From: Escherichia phage TanjaMuster_Bas81
DNA: 47,623 bases
Strand: one strand, 5' to 3'
Sequence record: PQ850630.1
Made by a program: the position numbers and the translations under genes. Of the stretch, positions 14,113 through 44,623 are shown in pieces. How positions within the stretch are numbered: the stretch's first letter is position 1; each line of letters starts with the position of its first letter. The notes beneath the pieces are model-generated. The model was not told where the DNA came from, searched no databases, and was given only the letters and a program-made list of their open reading frames with translations.

Positions 14113-14264
14113 CACCGTATATCTTTTGTTCATCATGGGCTGCTATCATTTAATCAGGAGGTAGCCCATGAACATAATCCCTATCACTTACTTTCTCACG
14201 CTCTACGCGCTCACCGACTCGCCATTGTTTGCACTGGCTACCGCCTCATGGTGCTACATCTCCC

Positions 14265-14275
14265 TGTGTTATAAT
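14265..14275 (+). promoter_or_regulatory. extended -10 promoter (TGtTATAAT) upstream of capsid genes
   Basis: tgtgttataat at 14265-14275, about 30 nt before RBS of gene 14307. Confidence 0.45.
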
Positions 14276-14306
14276 TCGACCACAAACTAACCGTGGAGAG
14301 TTAACC

Positions 14307-16183
<1,877 letters not shown>

Positions 16184-18617: not shown

Positions 18618-18880
18618 CAATCACCATCATCGTGAAGGCTGTTGAGTTTGCCTCCGCAGAAAGGACAAAAATTAAGCAGAACTGGATTTTTATTTCCAGC
18701 TTGATAGGTGACTTTTTCACCCAATGATTCTCCTGTGGAAATTAGCACCGATTGCACAGAAACTAATCCTTTTGTGTTTTTATTTGCTGCACGCTGAAGG
18801 TATTCAGCGAGATGTGCGCAAATATTAGTTGCGTATCTTTTCCCTTCGCTTGCGCATGGAATTAATTTTTCGGTCATCAC
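18617..18880 (-). CDS. zinc-finger protein (C-terminal CPFCG motif)
   Basis: 87-aa track ORF with Cys..Cys...CPFCGGK. Confidence 0.5.
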   Translation of the reverse strand: MMTEKLIPCASEGKRYATNICAHLAEYLQRAANKNTKGLVSVQSVLISTGESLGEKVTYQAGNKNPVLLNFCPFCGGKLNSLHDDGD

Positions 18881-19686
18881 ATCTTCTCCAGAATAGCCAT
18901 AACTTCGTGAATATCAGCAACAGGGATCTGGATAAATTCCTCATCCTCTGCCACCACATGACCAGCAGGAAGAATCACATGGTCGGCTGGCTTCAATAAC
19001 TCAATCAAACGGTCTACTGGCTTAATCTTTTTCGACTTCAGCACCTTCGCAGTGACCTTATCCTTACCTTGCGCCTTCGCTTCTTCCACTGCCTCGTCGA
19101 TAAGTTTAACCGCATCATCACCATGCTCACGCGTTACTGCTACGGCATTTGCATAGCTGATTTGCCCGGCGCTGATGCGCGCCTTTACTTCCGCCGTAAC
19201 GTCACCAAGCGATAGGTGCATTTGCACGTCAGATACTGAGCGACCTACCTTTTTTGCTATTTCTTCATTAGTCCAGCCAAAGCCTTTCAGTCGCGTGTAA
19301 GCCTTTGCGCGTTCAAACGGGTCGAGCTTCTTGCCCTGACTTGATGACACCATAAAGGCGATTTTATCCGCCTCATCCCCTGTGAAATCCTTACACTCAA
19401 TACGAACGATTGGTGCTCCGCGCTCAATGGCTCGCAGTGCGCCGAGATAGCGATGCTGACCATCAAGAATGCGGATTCCCTTCTCGTCAGGAATAACTGT
19501 TAATGCTGGTAATGGTTGGCCTGACTCCCAGCACTGCGCGAAATATTCCACATGCTGCTCATCTGCTTCGCGGATGTTGTATCCCGGCTCCAGATAGATT
19601 TGCTCCACTGGCACGAGATAGGTTTTGTTAACAGCGATGCCGTTTCGCGTCTCTTTGTCTGAATAGATTTTGCTGAGTGTTTTCAT
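18877..19686 (-). CDS. ParB-like nuclease-domain (ParB/sulfiredoxin) protein
   Basis: ILDGQHRYLGA motif characteristic of ParB N-terminal domain; 269 aa. Confidence 0.65.
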   Translation of the reverse strand: MKTLSKIYSDKETRNGIAVNKTYLVPVEQIYLEPGYNIREADEQHVEYFAQCWESGQPLPALTVIPDEKGIRILDGQHRYLGALRAIERGAPIVRIECKDFTGDEADKIAFMVSSSQGKKLDPFERAKAYTRLKGFGWTNEEIAKKVGRSVSDVQMHLSLGDVTAEVKARISAGQISYANAVAVTREHGDDAVKLIDEAVEEAKAQGKDKVTAKVLKSKKIKPVDRLIELLKPADHVILPAGHVVAEDEEFIQIPVADIHEVMAILEKM

Positions 19687-35168: not shown

Positions 35169-35195
35169 TAAGGCCCCGAAAGGGGCCTTTTCTCT
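35169..35195. terminator. bidirectional intrinsic terminator
   Basis: aggcccc/ggggcct stem with GAAA loop then TTTT; between convergent tailspike and ssb genes. Confidence 0.75.
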
Positions 35196-35210: not shown

Positions 35211-35714
35211 TCAAAACGGAATGTCGTCGTCGAAGTCCATCGGAGGCTCATTACCTCCTTGTTGGCTTTGTTGTTTTGGTTGCTGCTGCTGTTGCGGATT
35301 TGTTCCCCATCCACCTTGAGGTTGTTGTCCTGATTGCTGGCGTGGTTGCTGACCAGAATCATCGCGTTTACCACCAAGCATCTGCATAACGCCGCCCATC
35401 TGTGGAATGACAATCTCAGTTGTGTATCGGTCCACGCCGTTACTGTCAGTCCATTTTCGAGTGCGCAGCTGGCCTTCTATGTAAACTTGCGATCCTTTGC
35501 GAAGATATTCTGCTGCAACTTCCGCAAGTTTCCCGAATATGACAACACGATGCCATTCAGTTTGCTCTTTCTTTTCTCCTGTTTGTTTGTCTTTCCACTG
35601 CTCAGATGTTGCAACGGAAAGGTTGGCAATTGCAGAGCCTGATGCTGAATATTTAACTTCAGGGTCATTACCGAGAGTGCCGACAATAATTACTTTGTTT
35701 ACGCCTCGTGCCAT
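35211..35714 (-). CDS. ssb: single-stranded DNA-binding protein
   Basis: OB-fold N-terminal region typical of bacterial SSB, Gln/Gly-rich linker, acidic C-terminal tail DFDDDIPF. Confidence 0.9.
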
Positions 35715-35717
35715 TTA

Positions 35718-36764
35718 TTAAAATCCTTCAATTGGGGTTGGTTTATGTTCGGTTTTTTCTTCCTGTGGTTCTGGCTGTTGGGGTTGCGGTTTAGCCAGTT
35801 TTGCAGGGTTGAAGTTATCTTGCGGTGTGATTACCACAGGAGATAATTGCTCATCATTGATGAAAGACTCAATGCGATCATATTCAGTAGCAGAAGCAGC
35901 GAGAGAAGGCCAGATTGCACGAATCTTATCTTTCAGGTTATCAGGTATTGATTTTGCCTCTTCCTTCAGGCCTTCCATGCCTTTTGCGGCAGAGAGCTGA
36001 AGTCGTGAGCGCCATGACTCAAACTCTTCGTCAACTTTAACTCCAGAGTCCACCCATTTGATGAGTCCGCGACCATGTGCCTCGCCAATGTATCCATGTC
36101 GAACGCTTTCACGACCAGACTCAAAGAAGATTGGGCGTAGTTCTTCTGGTAATTTGGTGAACTCCTGAATTTTTCCTCCATCGTGCATCATCATGCTCAC
36201 AGTCATTTCGAACATGAAGTCTTTCTCGCACACTGGCTGTAACCCAAGTGATACAGGCTCCTTCGGGTTTGCGAAATCAGTTTTCTGGCGAGCACGAAGA
36301 CATACAATGATATGCATATTGCTTTGCAGCATGGCATTCATAAACTTCTTGTGTTCAGCTTTGGCGCGCTTCCAGTCAGCCATCTTTTTGCCGTTAAGCA
36401 ACGGCTTTTCAGCAATCTCCGTGCAACTCCCTTCCCCTTCCCATTCGTGCGAGCCTGAATCAATAACAAGAACCTTAACGCCAGCAGCCTGAAACTCTTC
36501 AATGGCCTGACGGTAACGAGCAGGACTGAATGGAGCATACATATCAGCATGCAGGAATTTACCATCAAGGATGTTTGAGTACAGGCGACCGCGACCGTTT
36601 TCAGTATCAAGGAATCCGATTTCTTCTGGTGAGTCAACCATCCCGCGAGCAAGCTTAAGTGCGCTATATGTTTTCCCGCTACCAGACTGGCCTGAAATAC
36701 CGATTACCACACGAGAACCGGAACGCTCTGCTGGTTTTATATTGAGAATACCCATTTGCATCAC
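35718..36764 (-). CDS. RecA-like NTPase (AAA_24/Sak4-like recombination ATPase)
   Basis: Walker A GISGQSGSGKT near N-terminus, Walker B-like hhhhD (VLVIDSG); in recombination module next to ssb and exonuclease. Confidence 0.55.
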   Translation of the reverse strand: MMQMGILNIKPAERSGSRVVIGISGQSGSGKTYSALKLARGMVDSPEEIGFLDTENGRGRLYSNILDGKFLHADMYAPFSPARYRQAIEEFQAAGVKVLVIDSGSHEWEGEGSCTEIAEKPLLNGKKMADWKRAKAEHKKFMNAMLQSNMHIIVCLRARQKTDFANPKEPVSLGLQPVCEKDFMFEMTVSMMMHDGGKIQEFTKLPEELRPIFFESGRESVRHGYIGEAHGRGLIKWVDSGVKVDEEFESWRSRLQLSAAKGMEGLKEEAKSIPDNLKDKIRAIWPSLAASATEYDRIESFINDEQLSPVVITPQDNFNPAKLAKPQPQQPEPQEEKTEHKPTPIEGF

Positions 36765-36772
36765 CTCACTAA

Positions 36773-37723
36773 TTATAAATTAAATTGCTTCTTGAACCAT
36801 TCAGGCGTTTCCATTTCTATGACAGGATTACCTATTGAATAACCCGGCCACGAATTGGCTTTTTTACACGCCTTGTAAATTTCCATAGCTCCATGCAACT
36901 GAATGCGACCGATGCGCAACTGCTCTTCCGTTAATCTAATTAACGCAGGAATAAACGGTGCTTTCTTTTCCTGAACTAAAAGGTTTACCGAACGAGGCGC
37001 ATGACCGTATGCCGCAACAAACATATCGTGTTGCATAGCCATTTTCATGAAGTAGCCAAGTCGCGCAGCATGTCGGAAAAACTCTTCAGGCTTGGCGCTA
37101 ACTGCTGTTTTGTAGTCAATGATGTCTCCTCCTTTTGTCAGGCAGTCAAAGCGAACTTTTGCTTTTTCTCCATTAAGCTCACCGAGAATTGACACTTCAG
37201 CATAAGCACCAGCAAGAAGACTGCTGTAATAGCTATTTGCGTGGATTACAGCACGCATTTGCTGAATGGATTCATAATCACCACCTTCCAGCATTTGCCT
37301 TCCTGCAGCAGATTTTTCAGCCTCTTCACGGATAACATCGTAAATTTTAACTGGTTCGCCAGTCGCCTGAATGATTTTAATCACCTCAGCCTTCGACTTT
37401 CCAGAAAGCCCTTTAATTCCTCGCTCTTTCGCCCATGAGTTCATGTCGCTCACGGTAACAAGCAGGTCATCACCAAAATCTTCTTTGGTTGGCATGCGAG
37501 CATATTCAGCATCAAAACGCTCTGGTTCAAGCAGAGCTGTATGACTTCCTGTACCGAAGATAAGTGCTTTTGACTGCTCATCTTCTTCGTCTTTGTAGCG
37601 CCATGCCGCTGGACAGCGGTCATAAATGTTCCACAAACCAGAGCCATTAATGTGCTCTGTGTCGGCGTGGTAATCCTCATTACTGAGTTCATTGTTGAAA
37701 TAGACTTTCATTGTTAACCTCAC
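36773..37723 (-). CDS. PD-(D/E)XK family exonuclease (RecE/YqaJ-like)
   Basis: motif FDCLTKGGDIIDYKT consistent with PD-(D/E)XK nuclease core. Confidence 0.55.
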   Translation of the reverse strand: MRLTMKVYFNNELSNEDYHADTEHINGSGLWNIYDRCPAAWRYKDEEDEQSKALIFGTGSHTALLEPERFDAEYARMPTKEDFGDDLLVTVSDMNSWAKERGIKGLSGKSKAEVIKIIQATGEPVKIYDVIREEAEKSAAGRQMLEGGDYESIQQMRAVIHANSYYSSLLAGAYAEVSILGELNGEKAKVRFDCLTKGGDIIDYKTAVSAKPEEFFRHAARLGYFMKMAMQHDMFVAAYGHAPRSVNLLVQEKKAPFIPALIRLTEEQLRIGRIQLHGAMEIYKACKKANSWPGYSIGNPVIEMETPEWFKKQFNL

Positions 37724-37748
37724 TCATCATCACGTAAATGAATCTACA

Positions 37749-38183
37749 TCAATCCACATCAAAAGGCAAGCCAAAATAGAAAAGTGTGGCTTTTTTTAGT
37801 TCATCAAGTCCATAAGCGATGGCGGCATAATGACCAAGCCTACACATCTCTGTTAGCACATCCGATTGCTCCTTGCTCACTCTGCTTTTACTTTTATCGC
37901 GGCGCTTTGACTCAATCATTCCGCAACTGTGATTTACACCCGGAGTCATTATTACGTTGTCGCCTATTCCAGTCTTAACTCCCATCTTCTGGCGCTTCAG
38001 CACAAACTGCACTCTGCTTGATGTGCCAGTTTCGTTTGGTACATGAAACCACAGAACATCAGGGAATCGGTGTTGCATCCATGTGCCGTAACCCATCTGG
38101 TCAGTCTCCTCTTTAGGACACTCACCACGATAACCGCTATCAAATACCCATATACCGCTATCAAGCTGCTTCACTTTGCTCAC
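37749..38183 (-). CDS. VRR-NUC domain nuclease
   Basis: 144 aa with D...E.K-type nuclease motif arrangement resembling VRR-NUC. Confidence 0.5.
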   Translation of the reverse strand: MSKVKQLDSGIWVFDSGYRGECPKEETDQMGYGTWMQHRFPDVLWFHVPNETGTSSRVQFVLKRQKMGVKTGIGDNVIMTPGVNHSCGMIESKRRDKSKSRVSKEQSDVLTEMCRLGHYAAIAYGLDELKKATLFYFGLPFDVD

Positions 38184-40098
38184 CTGTAAAATCTTTTCTG
38201 TGGATTATGTCTCGGCCTTTATCATTAATACGATGCGTGATGCGTTTTGGCGATTTAATCAATCCAGCATACATCATGAATTGTTTTGCGTTCTGGCATT
38301 TCAGTATTTTCCCAGCCATTGACTTATCATCAAGGTGAGGAAAGATAGCCTTTGCCTTAAACATGTTTTTCATGTGAGTTGCGCCGCTATAAGGGTAGAA
38401 AACCTCGCTAGCCCATCCTTCTTTTCCGTCACAACGATTAATCCAGTAGCGATATAAAACCCCCTCTCCATCCTTCGTTAACTGAACCTTGAAATCCATA
38501 ACGTCAGCCCATTCATTATCCGTATACGCACGCTCATTCAGTGCCGCATTAGGGTCGCGCAGAACATGATCGCAATGTCGGCAATAACGCGCAGTAGGGT
38601 CATTTTTAGTCCCGCAACCATCATCAAAAATCCGTATTCCATGCTTGTCGAAACCGCAACGAATGTAGCTGAAAAATTCTTCGCATCGACCATCTGGCGA
38701 TAGTACATCTTTGCCAATGCAGCGGCGCGCATATGGGCTGTTCATTGTTCCGCATTTCGGGCACGGAACCTGTTCACCACTGCGCCTTGAACGCTGAGCC
38801 TCAGCTTCTTCCAGAATCGGGTCTTCATACAGCTGACCAAGCTCAAACATCGTGCCTGAGAAATCAAGAACCAGATGGTCTTCTTTATGATACCCAGCAT
38901 CAATTTGCTCCTTCTTCAGCAGGCGCATACCGCGACCAAGCAACTGGACAAGGAGAGTTAGCGACATTATTTTCCTGAGGATTACGCTTACATCCCATAG
39001 CGGAATGTTTACTCCGGTCGTCAGCGCGGCTATCTGGAATGTGTATTTTATTTTGCCAGTGTACGCATCCTTTAGAGCCTTACGTCTGGCTTTTTGCCCC
39101 ATATCTTCGGTGACAATAGCGTAGCTACCTTCTGGCAGATATTTAGCAGCTTCTAAACAATGCTTCTTGCCTGCGCAGGTAATTAACACTCCATTTCTAT
39201 CTTTTGTAAGCTCCATCACTTTGAGCATGATTTTCTGTGTGAGAGTACCTTGCTCAAGGATTTCTTCCTGCATCTGCTTAAGTTGTTCGGCAGTGAAGTC
39301 CTGCGTTCCGTCGATATCAGATCCACGGAATGCTGAAAGGTCGTAATGCAAATCATCAACATCATGAAGGCCAAAGATTGTTGGAACAACAAATCCGCGA
39401 TCTACCATGTACTTTGTGTCAATGTTTATTATTTCATTCTTCCAGTACGCACCTTTCATTGATTCAGTGCCACGGAATGGGCTTCCGGTGAATCCAATTG
39501 TTATCATTTCATGACCATGTTTTGCCTTGCATCTCCTGTTAAGTTCCGTAAGTATTACACCATATTGTGTTGTTGGATTCTCACTAATAATGTCCTGCCA
39601 CGGAACTTGGTGCCCTTCATCGCACAGGCAAAATCTGGGGGCAAAATCACTCAATCCACCTTTCTTAACGTCACCACTTGATTCATCTTTTTTATCAAAA
39701 AGTGCGTTAACGATTGTTCCTTCAGTTCCGCATATAATAGGGTATGCTGTACTTTTCCTGCCAAGAGATGCGCTATAAAGAGAATTTTTTACACCGCACT
39801 CCCACATCATTTCAGCATTCTGCTCTGCTATTTCCCCCTGCCTTGAAATAACAAGGCCATCCCACCCCATATCCTGAAATCTACTGCAAAGCATTGAAAT
39901 TATCACGGTCTTTCCTGATGAAACCGACGCTGTAACATAGCTTGGTTCAGGTTTCTTGCCAAAATTACGAATAACCTCAGCGCACTTTGCGTAAACAAGC
40001 CATTGGTAATCATATGGCTCTATGGAGCCTAATTTTATTGATTGCTTTAACTTCTCAATATTAATCTCTGAAATCATTTTGTCTATTTTGTTCATCAC
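38161..40098 (-). CDS. SF2 (DEAD/DEAH-box type) DNA helicase with C-terminal zinc-finger region
   Basis: Walker A-like SSGKT, DEGH motif II, helicase C-terminal motifs, multiple C-terminal Cys pairs (CPKCG, CRHCDH). Confidence 0.7.
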   Translation of the reverse strand: MMNKIDKMISEINIEKLKQSIKLGSIEPYDYQWLVYAKCAEVIRNFGKKPEPSYVTASVSSGKTVIISMLCSRFQDMGWDGLVISRQGEIAEQNAEMMWECGVKNSLYSASLGRKSTAYPIICGTEGTIVNALFDKKDESSGDVKKGGLSDFAPRFCLCDEGHQVPWQDIISENPTTQYGVILTELNRRCKAKHGHEMITIGFTGSPFRGTESMKGAYWKNEIINIDTKYMVDRGFVVPTIFGLHDVDDLHYDLSAFRGSDIDGTQDFTAEQLKQMQEEILEQGTLTQKIMLKVMELTKDRNGVLITCAGKKHCLEAAKYLPEGSYAIVTEDMGQKARRKALKDAYTGKIKYTFQIAALTTGVNIPLWDVSVILRKIMSLTLLVQLLGRGMRLLKKEQIDAGYHKEDHLVLDFSGTMFELGQLYEDPILEEAEAQRSRRSGEQVPCPKCGTMNSPYARRCIGKDVLSPDGRCEEFFSYIRCGFDKHGIRIFDDGCGTKNDPTARYCRHCDHVLRDPNAALNERAYTDNEWADVMDFKVQLTKDGEGVLYRYWINRCDGKEGWASEVFYPYSGATHMKNMFKAKAIFPHLDDKSMAGKILKCQNAKQFMMYAGLIKSPKRITHRINDKGRDIIHRKDFTGEQSEAA

Positions 40099-40670
40099 CT
40101 ACTCCTGCTAAAATCACCGTGTAATGATTTTCTATATTTCTTTATGGCGTTACCTGCTTCCTCTGCTGTATTAAAGTAACCAAGATTAAATCTCCTGCCG
40201 TTAACCGCTATCCTTGCTCTCCACTTTTTACTTTTTGCATCAAAGCCAACCCCTTTAAATCCAGATTGGTTATCAATTCTGATTTTCCTATTCATGCAGT
40301 TTTCGCTTGGTTTTGCCTCTCTTAAATTTAAGATGGCGTTATTTGATTTATCTAAGTCGATATGGTCAATCTCAAATTAAGGCCACTTCCCGTTAACATA
40401 AAACCATGCAAGTCTGTGGGCCATAAACCTGTATCCACCTATAACTATGCGTACATATCCGGTATTCTCAACATATCCAGCTCTCGGTGAGTTACTGTGA
40501 TTACCATTTCTCCACGTAAAAATTCCTGTTGATTTTTCATAATTAATTTTTGATTTAAGAAACTCATGGCTTAGCGATGACTCCTTTTGCTTTCTTCTCT
40601 CTAAATTTCTTGACTCTGCACCTGACAGAGCAGCACTTCGCCTTTGCAGTTCCGATGAACTCATTTCCAC
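40095..40670 (-). pseudogene. HNH homing endonuclease gene disrupted by in-frame TAA stop (N-terminal fragment 40377..40670, C-terminal AP2 fragment 40095..40295)
   Basis: same reading frame across TAA at 40377-40379; translation ...HRLAWFYVNGKWP*FEIDHIDLDKSNNAILNLREA...MNRKIRIDNQSGFKGV aligns with intact paralog 541..1056 ([35 protein letters not shown]). Confidence 0.6.
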
Positions 40671-40701
40671 AAACCTCGCACTTCTTTACGGTGATCGCCA
40701 T
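40564..40701 (-). CDS. small zinc-ribbon protein (45 aa)
   Basis: manual translation MAITVKKCEVCGNEFIGTAKAKCCSVRCRVKKFREKKAKGVIAKP; GAGGT RBS; overlaps out-of-frame with 5' part of HNH pseudogene. Confidence 0.35.
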   Translation of the reverse strand: MAITVKKCEVCGNEFIGTAKAKCCSVRCRVKKFREKKAKGVIAKP

Positions 40702-40808
40702 TTCATAACCTCTATTGTAACGATTAATTGTTTCATTTCAAGTAACGATTGATTGTTTCATGCGAGTAAATTACAATGATTCTACATCATCGTCAACAGG
40801 AAGATTTT

Positions 40809-41762
40809 ATGAGATACGACTGGAAAGACATTGAGCCAAAAATGCTCGGAAATTGGCAGGCCGCCATCATGTCTATCGTCAATGTGGATAGCAGAGTTTT
40901 CAATGGCAAGCACCAGCCATGCCCGTCATGCTCAGGAAAAGACAGATATCGCTTTGATGATAACTTCGAAACAAAAGGCGATGGCGGCGCAATATGCAAT
41001 CAGTGCGGGTCCGGCAGCGGCATGAACTGGCTGATGAAACTTTCAGGCATGAACTTCCCTGAAGCACTGGAGGCGCTTGGTGGATTCCTGAACATGCACC
41101 CACGCGAAAAGCTGGAGGCAATCAGGAAGGAACTACCGAAGATAAATTACAACGATGACTTCATCACCGAGCAGGAAGTAGCCGCAATCATGTCTAAAAC
41201 GACGCGTGTCGCGATGAGTGAGTGGACTTTGATAAATGGTATTGGTTGCGACGTTAGCGTCGTCAGAGGGAAATCTGGGGAGCTTATTGCGGTTGAGATG
41301 GTGCGCGCTGACACAATGAGTCCGTGCAACGTGGCATTCATTGGCATGGATGGTGATGCATTCAGAACATTCTACAAAGCAGGATATAACAAAGACTCAG
41401 CCATAAACGGCAAACTCACACGAGGCGCGATAAGCCCAATCGGAGAAGATAACGGAAAGTTCATTTATCTGGTGTCTGATTATGCCGACGCGTGGAAATG
41501 CCATTACTTCACTGGCGCGCATGTCTGGTGCTGCTGGTCGCCGGAAAATATGTGGGAAGTGGTGCGCTCGGTTAGCGGTGAGACGAAAGCAAGGTTACGC
41601 TGCATAGTTAATTATAAATTTGACGAGCTTTGCGCTGCGGAAAATGCAGGACTTCCGGTGATGCTGCCTGATGATTCCGACACAATCAGGATGGCGAAGC
41701 GAATCAGAAGAAAGATTTATGACGCTGGCGAGTTGATAGAGAAGATCTCAGTTTGCAGATAA
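40809..41762 (+). CDS. DNA primase (N-terminal zinc-ribbon plus TOPRIM-like domain)
   Basis: CPSCSGKDRYRFDD...CNQCG zinc-binding motif as in phage primase-helicases; AGGAAG RBS before ATG 40809; TACAAT -10 at 40771-40776. Confidence 0.65.
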   Translation: MRYDWKDIEPKMLGNWQAAIMSIVNVDSRVFNGKHQPCPSCSGKDRYRFDDNFETKGDGGAICNQCGSGSGMNWLMKLSGMNFPEALEALGGFLNMHPREKLEAIRKELPKINYNDDFITEQEVAAIMSKTTRVAMSEWTLINGIGCDVSVVRGKSGELIAVEMVRADTMSPCNVAFIGMDGDAFRTFYKAGYNKDSAINGKLTRGAISPIGEDNGKFIYLVSDYADAWKCHYFTGAHVWCCWSPENMWEVVRSVSGETKARLRCIVNYKFDELCAAENAGLPVMLPDDSDTIRMAKRIRRKIYDAGELIEKISVCR

Positions 41763-41861
41763 AGGAAACCATCCAGTTGGAGGGTTTTTGTTATTCATTG
41801 AACTCTGGCGCTTCAGTCCAGAAGTGCTCAGGTAAAATTTTAAGTTCGTGTGTTTTGCTCA

Positions 41862-43454
41862 TCACAACCCCCTCATAAATCTCATGCGCTTAACGGCAGC
41901 GGAAAGATAATTTCTAACCGTTGAGTTCATCCGCAGGCCATCCCATGAACCATCACTACACATCTTAATTGCTCTTGGATTATCCCTGTCCAGCATTAGT
42001 GGTGAATGTTTGTTCTCCTCAATGGCAAGAAGAACCTCATAAACAAACTTATCAGGTGTTAGTGTGATGTTATTAGAGTCAGCAGAATTGATTATCTTTT
42101 CAACTCTGTCACGGCACAGCTTGTTCTTTATAACAGACAAATAAGGCGTTTTAATGAATGCCTGTGATTCACAAATTCGCTTTATTTTTTCAACAATATT
42201 CGACCACTCAGTATTCTCAAGTCCATCAAATGCCTGTTCACCCTCAAGGAATCTTTTCAGCCCTGACAGGTGTTCAAGAACCGTGATATAACCCCACTCG
42301 ATATGCTCCATCGTCACTGATGGTGTCATTCCCTGCCGACTTGACAGATCGGTATACGCCGCCAGAGTTGCAAGATCGACAATCATTAGACCCATACGAG
42401 GGATAACATCACCAACAACACCATCGCAATCACCAAGCTCACTTTCCAGTTTCATAGACAGAGATCGGTGCAGTTTTTTAGCATTATCATCAGCCCATAC
42501 AACGTGAGTTTTCGCGGTAAGAACCCTACCTTTCCACTCATTGATTATTTTTCTTGAAAGCGTACCACTCACTTCCACATCCTTCATCGCTGGCATTTCC
42601 TCACCAGCAAGATGTCCAAGCTGGAACAGCACGCGCCCCATACCGCCATCTTTCTGCCATGAACGCGCAGCATCTATTCCCTGCTCTGGTGTGACAGTAA
42701 TCAGCGGAACAAATTTTGCGTTTTCAATTCCACCTTCTTTTGTTGCAATTTCGTACTCATTCATTGCCGACTTTAGTGCTCTCCCAACGCTGTGGTCCAT
42801 CATCGCAAGACGCTTATAATCTATGACTCCTTTCCCGTCATCTCCACCAGTAAGTGGCACTATCCATCCCTCTGCGCTTGCTGCCGCCATGATGCGTTTT
42901 GGGTTTTGTTCCCACGTAAGGTTTTCAAGCAACTCCTTTATTATTGGTCTATTAGGAACCCACACGCCGCCATCAGTTAGGGCTCTATACCACGCCATAG
43001 TGCCGCCAAGATATGCATTGCGCGGGTTGTTCCAGTCTTCAAGATGTTGCTTGTCATCGTTCACAACGTAGAGCAAAGACCCACCTCCGGCAATCAGGTC
43101 TAACTGCATCTGTTTCGTCGATGTTGATTTGGATGCGCAAACTCTGGACCCTATTCCCAGCGCATTGGCATACGCCCTGACGAAACTCACCGGTGCACCC
43201 TTACCTGCACCAGAGCGAGCCACGAGAAATATTCCAGTATTGCAGATACTACCTGTTGGACCAATCAAGTATCGTCCAGCCATCGCCTGAGCAAGACCCA
43301 ACGCGCCAGTTAAACGATATCTTCCCCCTCCCTCACGGCGCTCAAACCCCCTTGCGATCTCATCCATAAACTCACCAAGTGCCCCGGGAGCATCCCGCTT
43401 TATGCCCATAGCCAGAGACTCAAAATCAATCGAACTCATCAATACACCCTCCAT
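41862..43454 (-). CDS. putative replication protein with P-loop NTPase motif (helicase/initiator candidate)
   Basis: 530 aa; Walker A-like GIFLVARSGAGKGAP; located in replication module; family not confidently recognised. Confidence 0.35.
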   Translation of the reverse strand: MEGVLMSSIDFESLAMGIKRDAPGALGEFMDEIARGFERREGGGRYRLTGALGLAQAMAGRYLIGPTGSICNTGIFLVARSGAGKGAPVSFVRAYANALGIGSRVCASKSTSTKQMQLDLIAGGGSLLYVVNDDKQHLEDWNNPRNAYLGGTMAWYRALTDGGVWVPNRPIIKELLENLTWEQNPKRIMAAASAEGWIVPLTGGDDGKGVIDYKRLAMMDHSVGRALKSAMNEYEIATKEGGIENAKFVPLITVTPEQGIDAARSWQKDGGMGRVLFQLGHLAGEEMPAMKDVEVSGTLSRKIINEWKGRVLTAKTHVVWADDNAKKLHRSLSMKLESELGDCDGVVGDVIPRMGLMIVDLATLAAYTDLSSRQGMTPSVTMEHIEWGYITVLEHLSGLKRFLEGEQAFDGLENTEWSNIVEKIKRICESQAFIKTPYLSVIKNKLCRDRVEKIINSADSNNITLTPDKFVYEVLLAIEENKHSPLMLDRDNPRAIKMCSDGSWDGLRMNSTVRNYLSAAVKRMRFMRGL

Positions 43455-43729
43455 ACGCGCAAGAATTTACCCTGGATAACACCCTGTTTCACCGTTAACA
43501 CAGCACCCACCCTGTCAGCCTCAATTTTTAGCGCCTTCTGAAGTGACGCCATTGTCATCTGAAAACCTCGCTCTATGTCGTATGCGTAGCACCCATCTCT
43601 GCCCCCAATCAAAATTGAAGTTGAATACCCGTTCTCAAAGTAAAACTGACACCCATCAGGAGCGGTAAGATTATTTATCACGTCGTGAGCAAGCGATGTC
43701 GTAACAGGGAATATCGGCGCGCAACTCAT
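43439..43729 (-). CDS. hypothetical protein
   Basis: track ORF trimmed to ATG 43729 with GGTGAGG RBS. Confidence 0.45.
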   Translation of the reverse strand: MSCAPIFPVTTSLAHDVINNLTAPDGCQFYFENGYSTSILIGGRDGCYAYDIERGFQMTMASLQKALKIEADRVGAVLTVKQGVIQGKFLRVWRVY

Positions 43730-43736
43730 ACTCACC

Positions 43737-43967
43737 TCACCCAACTCGCTTAATGTGCAAAACTTCATCGAAATATGAGCACGTTCTGAATTTCATCCCA
43801 AAATCCTCACCAACCCTTCCGAGACACGCGCGAAATCTTTCAACAGACATCACTTTATCTGCAATATCCTCATAAGAAATCGAATTAACCTGACCAACAT
43901 CCATATGTTTTGCAACGCGATACACGAATTCCATCTTTGAACCATCACGGTACATTTTGTTTCTCAT
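43737..43967 (-). CDS. hypothetical protein
   Basis: track ORF trimmed to ATG 43967 with GGAGGTG RBS; first gene of leftward operon. Confidence 0.45.
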   Translation of the reverse strand: MRNKMYRDGSKMEFVYRVAKHMDVGQVNSISYEDIADKVMSVERFRACLGRVGEDFGMKFRTCSYFDEVLHIKRVG

Positions 43968-44132
43968 AGACACCTCCATCCGCATTCCAACAGGAACTAT
44001 AGATAAAAAATAAAATTAGCGCAACACAAAACAGGTCTAACCAGCAATAATAGCTACCACACTTAACAACTGGTCAGACCACCATCTCGTATCTGATATA
44101 TGTGGATGGTGCACGTCGTTCAATTTGTGCTC

Positions 44133-44487
44133 GATTTTTACCTAATTTACCGTATATTTATTAGTCAGTTTTTTGCATAACCAATTGATTTATATGATTT
44201 TACCTGTTTTACCGGAAATCTAATGAGTATTTTCATCATTGAGAGTAGTAGTATATTAATTGGTCTAATTTTTAAAGAACTCTAATAAAATCAATATATT
44301 AATATAAGAAAGTAACTTACTTACTTATATAGGATTTACCGGGTAAAACCGGTAACTCCTCCGCAGTCCGCGTCATTACTGGATTGATTTTTACCACCTG
44401 TAGGTAAATACAGTAGTTTTTAAGTCAGGATTGTTTTGTAAGATGTTGATTACCGGTACTTTATTTGAAAAACCGGGATTTACCGGG
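44133..44487. repeat. AT-rich region with six iteron-like repeats GAT(T)nTACC / TTTACCGG (candidate origin or operator cluster)
   Basis: copies at 44133-44142, 44196-44204, 44333-44340, 44386-44395, 44448-44454, 44477-44484; spacing roughly multiples of 10 bp. Confidence 0.5.
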
Positions 44488-44623
44488 TTTTTGTGGTGTG
44501 ATTAATAATCGCGCAATTAGCCATGTTTCACCAGAACTCACTGATGCGACACCTGAAAATCGCATTGACGTAGAATTACAACTGATGTAGATTGAACTCA
44601 TCAAAACAAACGAGGGTGAAGAG

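Follow-up and report, generated by a model that had tools for sequence, protein, structure and literature searches.

What does the large, unassigned P-loop protein in the replication region of Escherichia phage TanjaMuster_Bas81 do? We addressed this question in sequence record PQ850630.1, a stretch of 47,623 nucleotides (the window), in which the region occupies positions 35211 to 43967 and the gene for the 530-amino-acid (530-aa) protein lies on the minus strand at 41862–43454. An earlier interpretation made from the letters alone (the sequence-only reading) suggested a novel replicative helicase or initiator. Profile, structure, and synteny evidence supports the proposed function; "novel" does not hold, because the protein falls into the already described DUF3987 family of helicase superfamily 6 (SF6). 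We put the probability at roughly 80% that 41862–43454 encodes a phage replicative helicase, a diverged DUF3987 protein, and that it belongs, with an origin, to a module whose helicase is replicative, possibly also the initiator, and which relies on the host polymerase. New here is that the stretch from the helicase gene to about position 44564 behaves as a swappable cassette with sharp borders and type-specific iterons.

The whole window (47.6 kb) is approximately a complete, small siphophage genome of the Skatevirus-like kind. Its 8.8-kb replication region shares 88 to 91% DNA identity with the Escherichia coli phages ClaudiaMuster_Bas77, ChristineMuster_Bas80, vB_Eco_ZCEC08, and ASO78B, and the left two thirds also match >100 Salmonella Skatevirus phages, for example Skate, SeSz-2, and seszw. 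The Bas phages belong to the BASEL collection (PMC11990801). Among the loci of relatives that we compared, L001 is ZCEC08 and L002 is Bas80; the others named below are L003, L004, L006, L014, and L018.

The 530-aa type is found in 10 of 50,697 GenBank phage records and is called "hypothetical" in all 10. Searches with the single sequence yielded nothing usable in Pfam, NCBIfam, PADLOC, or the PDB. The Pfam DUF3987 profile (PF13148) aligned with residues 253 to 385 (profile positions 203 to 344) at 13.5 bits and E 0.04, below its gathering score of 27 bits, and the five closest homologs did not match it either. A phmmer search of the PDB placed subtilisins on top (E 0.17), which we judged to be chance matches, and a profile search of the PDB was also empty. 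The phrog_3022 profile, labeled "DNA primase," did match (E 6e-12); the match is confined to its C-terminal, nonprimase part (profile positions 357 to 712 of 788).

Searches that used more than one sequence were more informative. While word-indexed homolog searches returned only 6 to 10 proteins, a HMMER profile of six close homologs, searched against 1.84 billion representatives, retrieved 51 proteins at E ≤ 1e-3, of which 10 reached E ≤ 1e-30; numbers this low indicate a small, isolated subfamily. Among the 38 distant matches, 22 carry Pfam DUF3987 (best E 8e-16), and others add Prim-Pol, PriCT_2, RepB_primase, or BT4734 domains, which identifies them as primase-helicase fusions. Alignment of the 12-member close family with six DUF3987-positive proteins by hhalign gave a probability of 99.7% (E 7e-26, 411 columns). 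At three distant family members, no primase gene was found within 5 kb. DUF3987 proteins are SF6, MCM-related proteins with a winged helix-turn-helix at the C terminus, linked to archaeo-eukaryotic or DnaG primases, and have been proposed to be phage replicative helicases (Kazlauskas et al. 2016, PMC4889955); one of them, AgaPH (PriCT-DUF3987), is an ATP/dATP-dependent 5′-3′ helicase that binds its primase (PMC11724360). Judged from these alignments, the 530-aa protein is a far-diverged, stand-alone member of the DUF3987 (SF6, MCM-related) AAA+ family rather than a new kind of protein. The confident match is thus to a replicative family, not to a nonreplicative one.

The sequence-only reading considered a Walker A-like GAGKG to be the only recognizable feature of the protein. 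GAGKG (residues 82 to 86; 43197–43211) is indeed the Walker A motif of the family, but it stands within a complete set of AAA+ motifs, and the protein also has a winged helix at its C terminus. The gene and these elements, all on the minus strand, are as follows.

41862–43454, minus strand: probable replicative helicase of the DUF3987 family (MCM-like AAA+), from profile, structure, and synteny
43197–43214, minus strand: Walker A, SGAGKG, from the alignment
43053–43070, minus strand: Walker B, YVVNDD, from the alignment
42690–42692, minus strand: sensor 1, T255, from alignment and model
42633–42635, minus strand: arginine finger, R274, from alignment and model
42396–42398, minus strand: sensor 2, R353, from alignment and model
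about 41961–42140, minus strand: predicted C-terminal winged helix, from the model

The true start is probably the ATG at 43439, giving a product of 525 aa, because GGAGG lies 8 nucleotides upstream and the start overlaps the upstream stop codon (TGATG), as annotated in relatives. In an alignment of 25 sequences, G84, K85, S112, G270, R274, and R353 are invariant, and T255, G273, and G348 are nearly so. All 12 sequences of the close family have D133, which in the alignment falls on the Walker B DD/DE pair of more distant members. Conservation of all catalytic residues other than those of the deviant Walker A and B positions (see below) argues for an active ATPase, albeit one whose magnesium coordination is perhaps not textbook: the magnesium-binding site may be unusual, that is, shifted or atypical.

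An AlphaFold2 model agrees with an AAA+ fold. The 25-sequence alignment was needed to obtain it (predicted local distance difference test [pLDDT] score, 88.6; predicted template modeling score, 0.79), since 6 sequences gave an unusable model (pLDDT, 46.7). All motif residues occupy AAA+ positions: the P-loop follows strand 74–78, D133/D134 follow strand 126–132, T255 terminates strand 247–254 as sensor 1, R353 lies within the lid helix as sensor 2, and R274 stands directly ahead of strand 275–279, the arginine-finger position of the MCM "SRF." Residues 439 to 498 form helices 439–446, 449–460, and 467–479, then strands 486–488 and 495–498; from this order of secondary-structure elements in the model, we assign the segment as a winged helix. 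A conserved basic helix (residues 511 to 529) lies beyond it.

A Foldseek search of predicted viral structures ranked the "Replicative DNA helicase" of Salmonella phage LPSTLL first (E 2e-18; template modeling [TM] score, 0.74 to 0.78; 19% identity), followed by primase-polymerase/helicase fusions (Serratia phage Eta, Pantoea phage LIET2, Brucella phage Pr, and NrS-1-like proteins) and by many proteins annotated as "DUF3987 domain-containing." Against the PDB, MCM subunits dominated the top 50 matches (probability up to 1.0), with dynein and a few unrelated chains interspersed. Two other assignments were considered and rejected: a DnaB/T7 gp4 (SF4) or SF3-type helicase, because no DnaB_C domain was found in Pfam, NCBIfam, or the PDB and the fold is MCM-like AAA+; and a defense or antidefense ATPase, because PADLOC gave no match and the context is wrong.

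Upstream of the helicase gene lie one or two small genes and an AT-rich spacer of ∼580 bp, which together with it make up the cassette. Its other elements are listed here.

43439–43729, minus strand: 96-aa small protein whose translation is coupled to that of the helicase; shares 26% identity with the L003 92-aa protein (E 3e-11)
43737–43967, minus strand: 76-aa small protein, a paralog of the 96-aa protein and the first gene of the leftward operon, with ribosome-binding site (RBS) and start codon; matches phrog_28700 (E 1e-5, function unknown)
43986–44564, no strand: candidate origin, an AT-rich spacer with nine GGTAAA iterons at 44137–44484
44565–44593, plus strand: rightward early promoter-like site, TTGACG-17-TAGATT, conserved; the right border of the cassette, where similarity to relatives resumes exactly

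The borders emerged from blastn comparisons with relatives that carry other helicase types (L003, L004, L014, and Skate). DNA identity is 86 to 94% to the right of 44565 and 90 to 93% to the left of ∼41825; between ∼41825 and 44564 it drops to 63 to 74%, and then in the helicase gene only, or is undetectable. So sharp a drop marks the divergent block as a unit, bordered by the rightward early promoter on one side and a hairpin after the primase gene on the other.

Spacer and adjoining promoter stretch (43986–44620) have a G+C content of 34%. A 350-bp stretch holds nine of the 37 GGTAAA hexamers of the window (Poisson P = 2e-11). Several repeats are paired in tandem, 9 bp apart, at 44137/44146 and 44199/44208 (GGTAAA) and at 44342/44351 (GGTAA), and the iterons flank a 100-bp core of 19% G+C (44216–44315). 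Iteron pairs around an AT-rich core beside a replication gene, exchanged jointly with it, are the classical signature of an origin and its initiator. On this layout, 43986–44564 looks like a replication origin.

Analogous arrays are present in 20 related loci, and in 17 loci the iteron variant follows the helicase type (percentages are identity to the window helicase).

Window helicase type (93 to 98%): repeat CCGGTAAA
P0004 helicase type (51%): repeat CCGGTAAC(TC), up to 11 copies
P0002 helicase type (57 to 58%): repeat (C)GGGAACTC, up to 11 copies
Skate helicase type (23%): repeat CGGGATAA

Distant family members (27 to 39% identity), which sit in different phage backgrounds, likewise have an AT-rich spacer and GGTAA-like repeats (TTGGTAA, T(A/G)GTAAA, or CAGGTAAA) ahead of the gene; at L018, there is no small gene between the repeats and the helicase gene.

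Which protein reads the iterons? The rightward early genes were considered and rejected, as they keep ∼89% DNA identity between phages with different iterons. Given this conservation, and since iterons and helicase swap as a unit, iteron specificity must be encoded inside the cassette. Two kinds of cassette protein come into question. The small proteins form one family, whose genes precede those of the helicases, with members of 76 and 96 aa in the window and of 92, 92, 73, 71, and 67 aa elsewhere; the N terminus of the 76-aa protein is 37 to 43% identical to the 92-aa proteins of L003 and L006. Neither small cassette protein has a Pfam or PDB assignment, and the 96-aa protein has no match in PADLOC. 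As for the helicase, conservation between iteron types is lowest in the first 22 residues and in the wing of the winged helix (residues 481 to 505, 36 to 48% identity, versus 72 to 80% in the adjacent basic helix), a pattern weakly compatible with a role in specificity.

A viable, genome-reduced Skatevirus mutant bears on this choice. We compared the deposited genome of seszw_280L (36,975 bp), which comes from the CiPGr genome-reduction study (PMC9825161). Missing from it are the small gene upstream and two small ones downstream, as well as the HNH gene; it keeps the iteron region (99% identical), the Skate-type helicase (99.9%), and the primase. The small protein is therefore dispensable in that phage, which shifts the odds toward the helicase or a host factor as iteron reader. 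Our preferred reader is the helicase, which would work as an initiator-helicase by means of its C-terminal winged helix and its variable wing or N terminus; one of the small proteins is the alternative.

With helicase activity, polarity, and ring assembly as predictions from the family, the module would work as follows. Early leftward transcription would express the small proteins and the DUF3987 helicase, whose gene is the last of the leftward operon. The helicase, possibly guided by its winged helix, would assemble as a ring at the iteron/AT-rich region and unwind DNA by ATP hydrolysis: K85 and D133/D134 would bind nucleotide and magnesium, T255 would serve as sensor 1, R274 as an arginine finger acting in trans, and R353 as sensor 2. 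The DnaG-type primase would then prime, the phage single-stranded DNA-binding protein (SSB) would coat single strands, and host DNA polymerase III would carry out synthesis. We assign synthesis to the host because no DNA polymerase was found among the ten large open reading frames (ORFs) of the window that we scanned; these also include no second replicative helicase. A stronger version, in which this MCM-like DUF3987 protein is a self-sufficient initiator-helicase that reads the GGTAAA iterons, melts the AT-rich core, and loads itself without a separate loader, is a reading that we hold only tentatively and would not bet on at even odds. If true, phages would re-program origin specificity by swapping an iteron-helicase cassette, and the protein, with an MCM-type AAA+ core and an atypical magnesium site (GKG/NDD), would be a bacterial-virus counterpart of simian virus 40 (SV40) large T antigen or P4 alpha.

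Several observations weigh against the assignment of the 530-aa protein as a replicative helicase acting at an origin. No single-sequence match reached a curated threshold (Pfam DUF3987, E 0.04; NCBIfam and PDB, none), and the DUF3987-positive proteins aligned by hhalign had themselves been retrieved with the profile of the 530-aa family. Ser/Thr is absent after K85 (GKG; relatives have GKQ, GKS, GKD, GKE, or GKN), and the first acidic position of Walker B is Asn (YVVNDD; relatives have hhhDD or hhhDE). The MCM matches in the PDB reach TM scores of only 0.3 to 0.36, with E values of 4e-3 or weaker. The would-be recognition helix (467–479) is hydrophobic and acidic, which is atypical for a sequence-specific DNA reader. 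All parts of the cassette are linked, so covariation cannot tell which protein binds the iterons; moreover, with divergent promoter-like sites on either side, the iterons could function as operators instead of an origin. Finally, initiators and loaders of the Orc1/Cdc6 type, which do not unwind DNA, likewise combine an AAA+ core with a winged helix at the C terminus.

This last point leads to the idea that the 530-aa AAA+ protein serves as an initiator or loader (Orc1/Cdc6 or DnaA/DnaC-like) that binds the iterons, melts the core, and recruits host DnaB as the fork helicase. The position of the gene next to the iteron/AT-rich region and the covariation of helicase type with iteron variant would suit such a role, and the deviant Walker A and B motifs would fit a slow, switch-type ATPase. 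The nearest solved structures, however, are for the most part subunits of the MCM helicase rather than Orc, Cdc6, or DnaA; among predicted structures, the helicase portions of primase-helicase fusions come closest; helicase activity has been demonstrated for one DUF3987 member (PMC11724360); and the phage encodes a primase of its own, with which a phage-encoded fork helicase usually works. We therefore consider an initiator or loader improbable. It is far less probable still that the RadD-like superfamily 2 (SF2) helicase encoded at 38161–40098 is the fork helicase and the 530-aa protein a nonreplicative ATPase of transcription, antidefense, or packaging. Although the SF2 helicase is large, conserved, and kept in the minimal seszw mutant, and the 530-aa protein lacks a curated family assignment, the former resembles a repair helicase and sits in a recombination block with an exonuclease, an annealing protein, and a nuclease, while all homology and fold evidence links the latter to primase-linked replicative helicases, and no defense family in PADLOC matches it.

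A different doubt concerns the iterons only and is compatible with the helicase assignment: the region may serve mainly transcriptional control, with one or both of the 76-aa and 96-aa proteins binding GGTAAA as Cro-like regulators of the divergent early promoters and the helicase loaded elsewhere or without sequence specificity. The repeats do lie between the rightward promoter-like site (44565–44593) and the start of the leftward operon, the small proteins diverge fastest in the cassette (26% identity between types, versus 51% for the helicase), and seszw_280L can do without the small gene, as might be the case if it encoded an accessory regulator. Nevertheless, tandem iteron pairs around a core of 19% G+C are a classical origin layout, GGTAA-type iterons also precede the genes of distant family members (at L018 without an intervening small gene), and Pfam and PDB searches found no recognizable DNA-binding domain in the small proteins. 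We regard transcriptional control as a serious, if minority, possibility, and a replicative helicase with an adjacent origin as the better account of the locus.

The primase gene and an HNH pseudogene adjoin the cassette on the left.

40809–41762, plus strand: DnaG/T7-type primase, 317 aa, with zinc ribbon and catalytic part; PF08273 (Zn_Ribbon_Prim), E 3.7e-12
40749–40777, plus strand: σ70-like promoter-like site, TTGATT-17-TACAAT, 9 of 12 matches, directly upstream of the primase RBS and ATG at 40809
40095–40700, minus strand: HNH homing-endonuclease pseudogene; in-frame TAA at 40377–40379, N terminus frameshifted

The primase matches phrog_510 ("DNA primase") at E 1.3e-83 over profile positions 4 to 326 of 667. 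As the sequence-only reading stated, its gene is on the plus strand; the promoter claimed for it is a candidate site, to which its position and its conservation in Skate, Bas80, and L004 point, and promoter-like sites in our scan overall were no commoner than expected by chance. The primase gene is convergent with the gene for the 530-aa protein, 100 bp away, and this arrangement is kept in every relative examined. The gap contains a 23-codon remnant (41791–41862, minus strand; MSKTHELKILPEHFWTEAPEFNE*) of a DUF3850/ASCH-like gene, annotated as "RNA-binding protein" in relatives. This gene is intact (138 aa) in Bas80, ZCEC08, and L003, and the Bas80 homolog matches PF12961 at E 1e-19. According to blastn, the window retains the first ∼50 and the last ∼35 nucleotides of the L003 gene, and ∼330 nucleotides are deleted, which accounts for the 100-bp distance between helicase and primase genes.

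The HNH pseudogene proved to be real: three-frame translation shows a single in-frame TAA directly ahead of the catalytic motif EIDHIDLDKSNNAILNLREA and the N-terminal zinc ribbon in a different frame. Its two pieces match phrog_99 positions 92 to 173 and 203 to 265, with an AP2 domain in the 3′ piece. The gene is intact (334 aa) in Skate and L004, while Bas80 (L002, 7807–8580) has an unrelated 257-aa zinc-ribbon-like ORF in the same slot. The gap between pseudogene and primase gene contains two 20-bp direct repeats (40719–40763; GTAACGATTAATTGTTTCAT and GTAACGATTGATTGTTTCAT) that overlap divergent promoter-like sites. The first copy occurs only in HNH-carrying genomes (the window, Skate, and L004) and is absent in Bas80, so it looks like the border of a homing-endonuclease insertion.

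Farther left, the SSB, RecA-like ATPase, exonuclease, VRR-NUC, and SF2 helicase genes are contiguous minus-strand ORFs, just where the sequence-only reading had placed them.

35211–35714, minus strand: SSB, 167 aa; PF00436, E 2.6e-39; called SSB in relatives
35718–36764, minus strand: RecA-fold ATPase, AAA_24/Sak4-like, 348 aa; PF13479, E 4e-12; phrog_1366, E 3e-83; phrog_124 ("Sak4-like"), E 2.5e-9
36773–37723, minus strand: PD-(D/E)XK exonuclease, DUF3799; PF12684, E 3.9e-24; "exonuclease VIII" in relatives
37749–38183, minus strand: small protein, possibly a VRR-NUC-type nuclease; phrog_824 (function unknown), E 3e-39
38161–40098, minus strand: SF2 helicase with C-terminal zinc ribbons, RadD-like; Helicase_C (E 6e-8), ResIII, and zinc ribbons; phrog_16, E 7e-74

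For the product of 37749–38183, the VRR-NUC label is weak: the Pfam VRR_NUC match (E 0.19) is below threshold, the name is used by one GenBank annotator, and no PDB sequence match was found. The SF2 helicase matches the NCBIfam RadD family at E 8e-50, yet scores 170 bits against a family cutoff of 720; it probably serves repair or recombination. By its family matches, the product of 35718–36764 is a candidate single-strand annealing protein. The annealing-protein slot is mosaic: L003 (13170–13629) has an ERF-family protein, and the window, Bas80, and Skate have the AAA_24/Sak4-like ATPase. Together, the Sak4-like protein, the exonuclease, the VRR-NUC-like protein, and the RadD-like helicase probably constitute a recombination/repair block that supports recombination-dependent replication and concatemer formation. 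ZCEC08 (L001, 3489–3989) has an additional HNH gene in the interval between SSB and recombinase genes. A perfect 8-bp GC-rich hairpin, AAGGCCCC-GAAA-GGGGCCTT (35170–35189), lies between the convergent tailspike and SSB genes; with T runs flanking it on both strands, it is probably a bidirectional terminator that closes the leftward replication operon.

The remainder of the window encodes terminase, portal, capsid, and tail genes. Amid these structural genes, a 269-aa protein (18877–19686, minus strand) has ParB-HTH and KorB domains (E 1e-10) and could be a partition protein, a nuclease, or a regulator. Also in the structural region, a 496-aa ORF that starts with TTG (14229–15719, plus strand) had no Pfam match at E ≤ 1e-3.

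What does this add? A function is now proposed for a gene labeled "hypothetical protein" in every GenBank phage with the 530-aa type, and it fills the last gap in the replication toolkit of the Skatevirus-like phages, which serve in biocontrol and are part of the BASEL collection: an origin candidate, a helicase, a primase, and SSB, plus the host polymerase. A compact cassette with matched iteron variants is also a convenient natural system for studying how DUF3987/MCM-like helicases find origins and are loaded there. No new kind of machine is revealed; this is ordinary but useful annotation, worth a modest follow-up.

Among known systems, the DUF3987 (PF13148) helicases, such as AgaPH, the SF6 protein of Mycobacterium phage Corndog, and N4 dns, share with the 530-aa protein the AAA+ motif set, the C-terminal winged helix, and the linkage to a primase. 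The 530-aa protein differs in that it stands alone, without PriCT or primase fusion; carries a helical insert of ∼115 residues in the interval from Walker B to sensor 1, as well as a basic helix at its C terminus; has GKG rather than GK[ST] in Walker A and NDD in Walker B; and scores below the Pfam threshold. Its primase gene is convergent instead of immediately upstream.

The Skate-type 495-aa protein (Skate gp64; also in seszw and LPSTLL) is encoded in the same slot, with the primase gene on one side and the early intergenic region on the other. Its predicted fold and motifs are those of the 530-aa protein, and here too there are an iteron region and a small gene upstream; however, the two proteins are only 23% identical (pairwise E 9e-5), and the Skate type has a canonical DE Walker B (FIIDECH). 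It has been annotated as "DNA primase / may be primase-helicase" or "replicative DNA helicase." With flanking genes of ∼90% DNA identity and helicases of 23%, one cassette has replaced the other.

MCM is the closest group of solved structures. It shares the order of AAA+ motifs, including the arginine finger directly before strand 5, and the C-terminal winged helix, but the 530-aa protein has no N-terminal OB/zinc domain of MCM size, identity is ∼10%, and the Pfam MCM profile (PF00493) does not match. The 530-aa protein is thus a relative of MCM and not a member of the MCM family. The two groups may also differ in direction: AgaPH, the one characterized DUF3987 helicase, moves 5′-3′, and MCM moves 3′-5′ (PMC11724360).

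The 530-aa protein and its spacer also invite comparison with replaceable origin modules. The lambda O/P-ori system and P4 alpha with its ori/crr iterons are modules in which origin and initiator are replaced together; lambda uses the O protein with recruitment of DnaB, and P4 uses an SF3 helicase. Like these modules, the cassette described here places short iterons and an AT-rich stretch near a replication gene and is exchanged with matching iteron and protein specificity. Unlike them, it belongs to different protein families, and its iterons lie outside the helicase gene.

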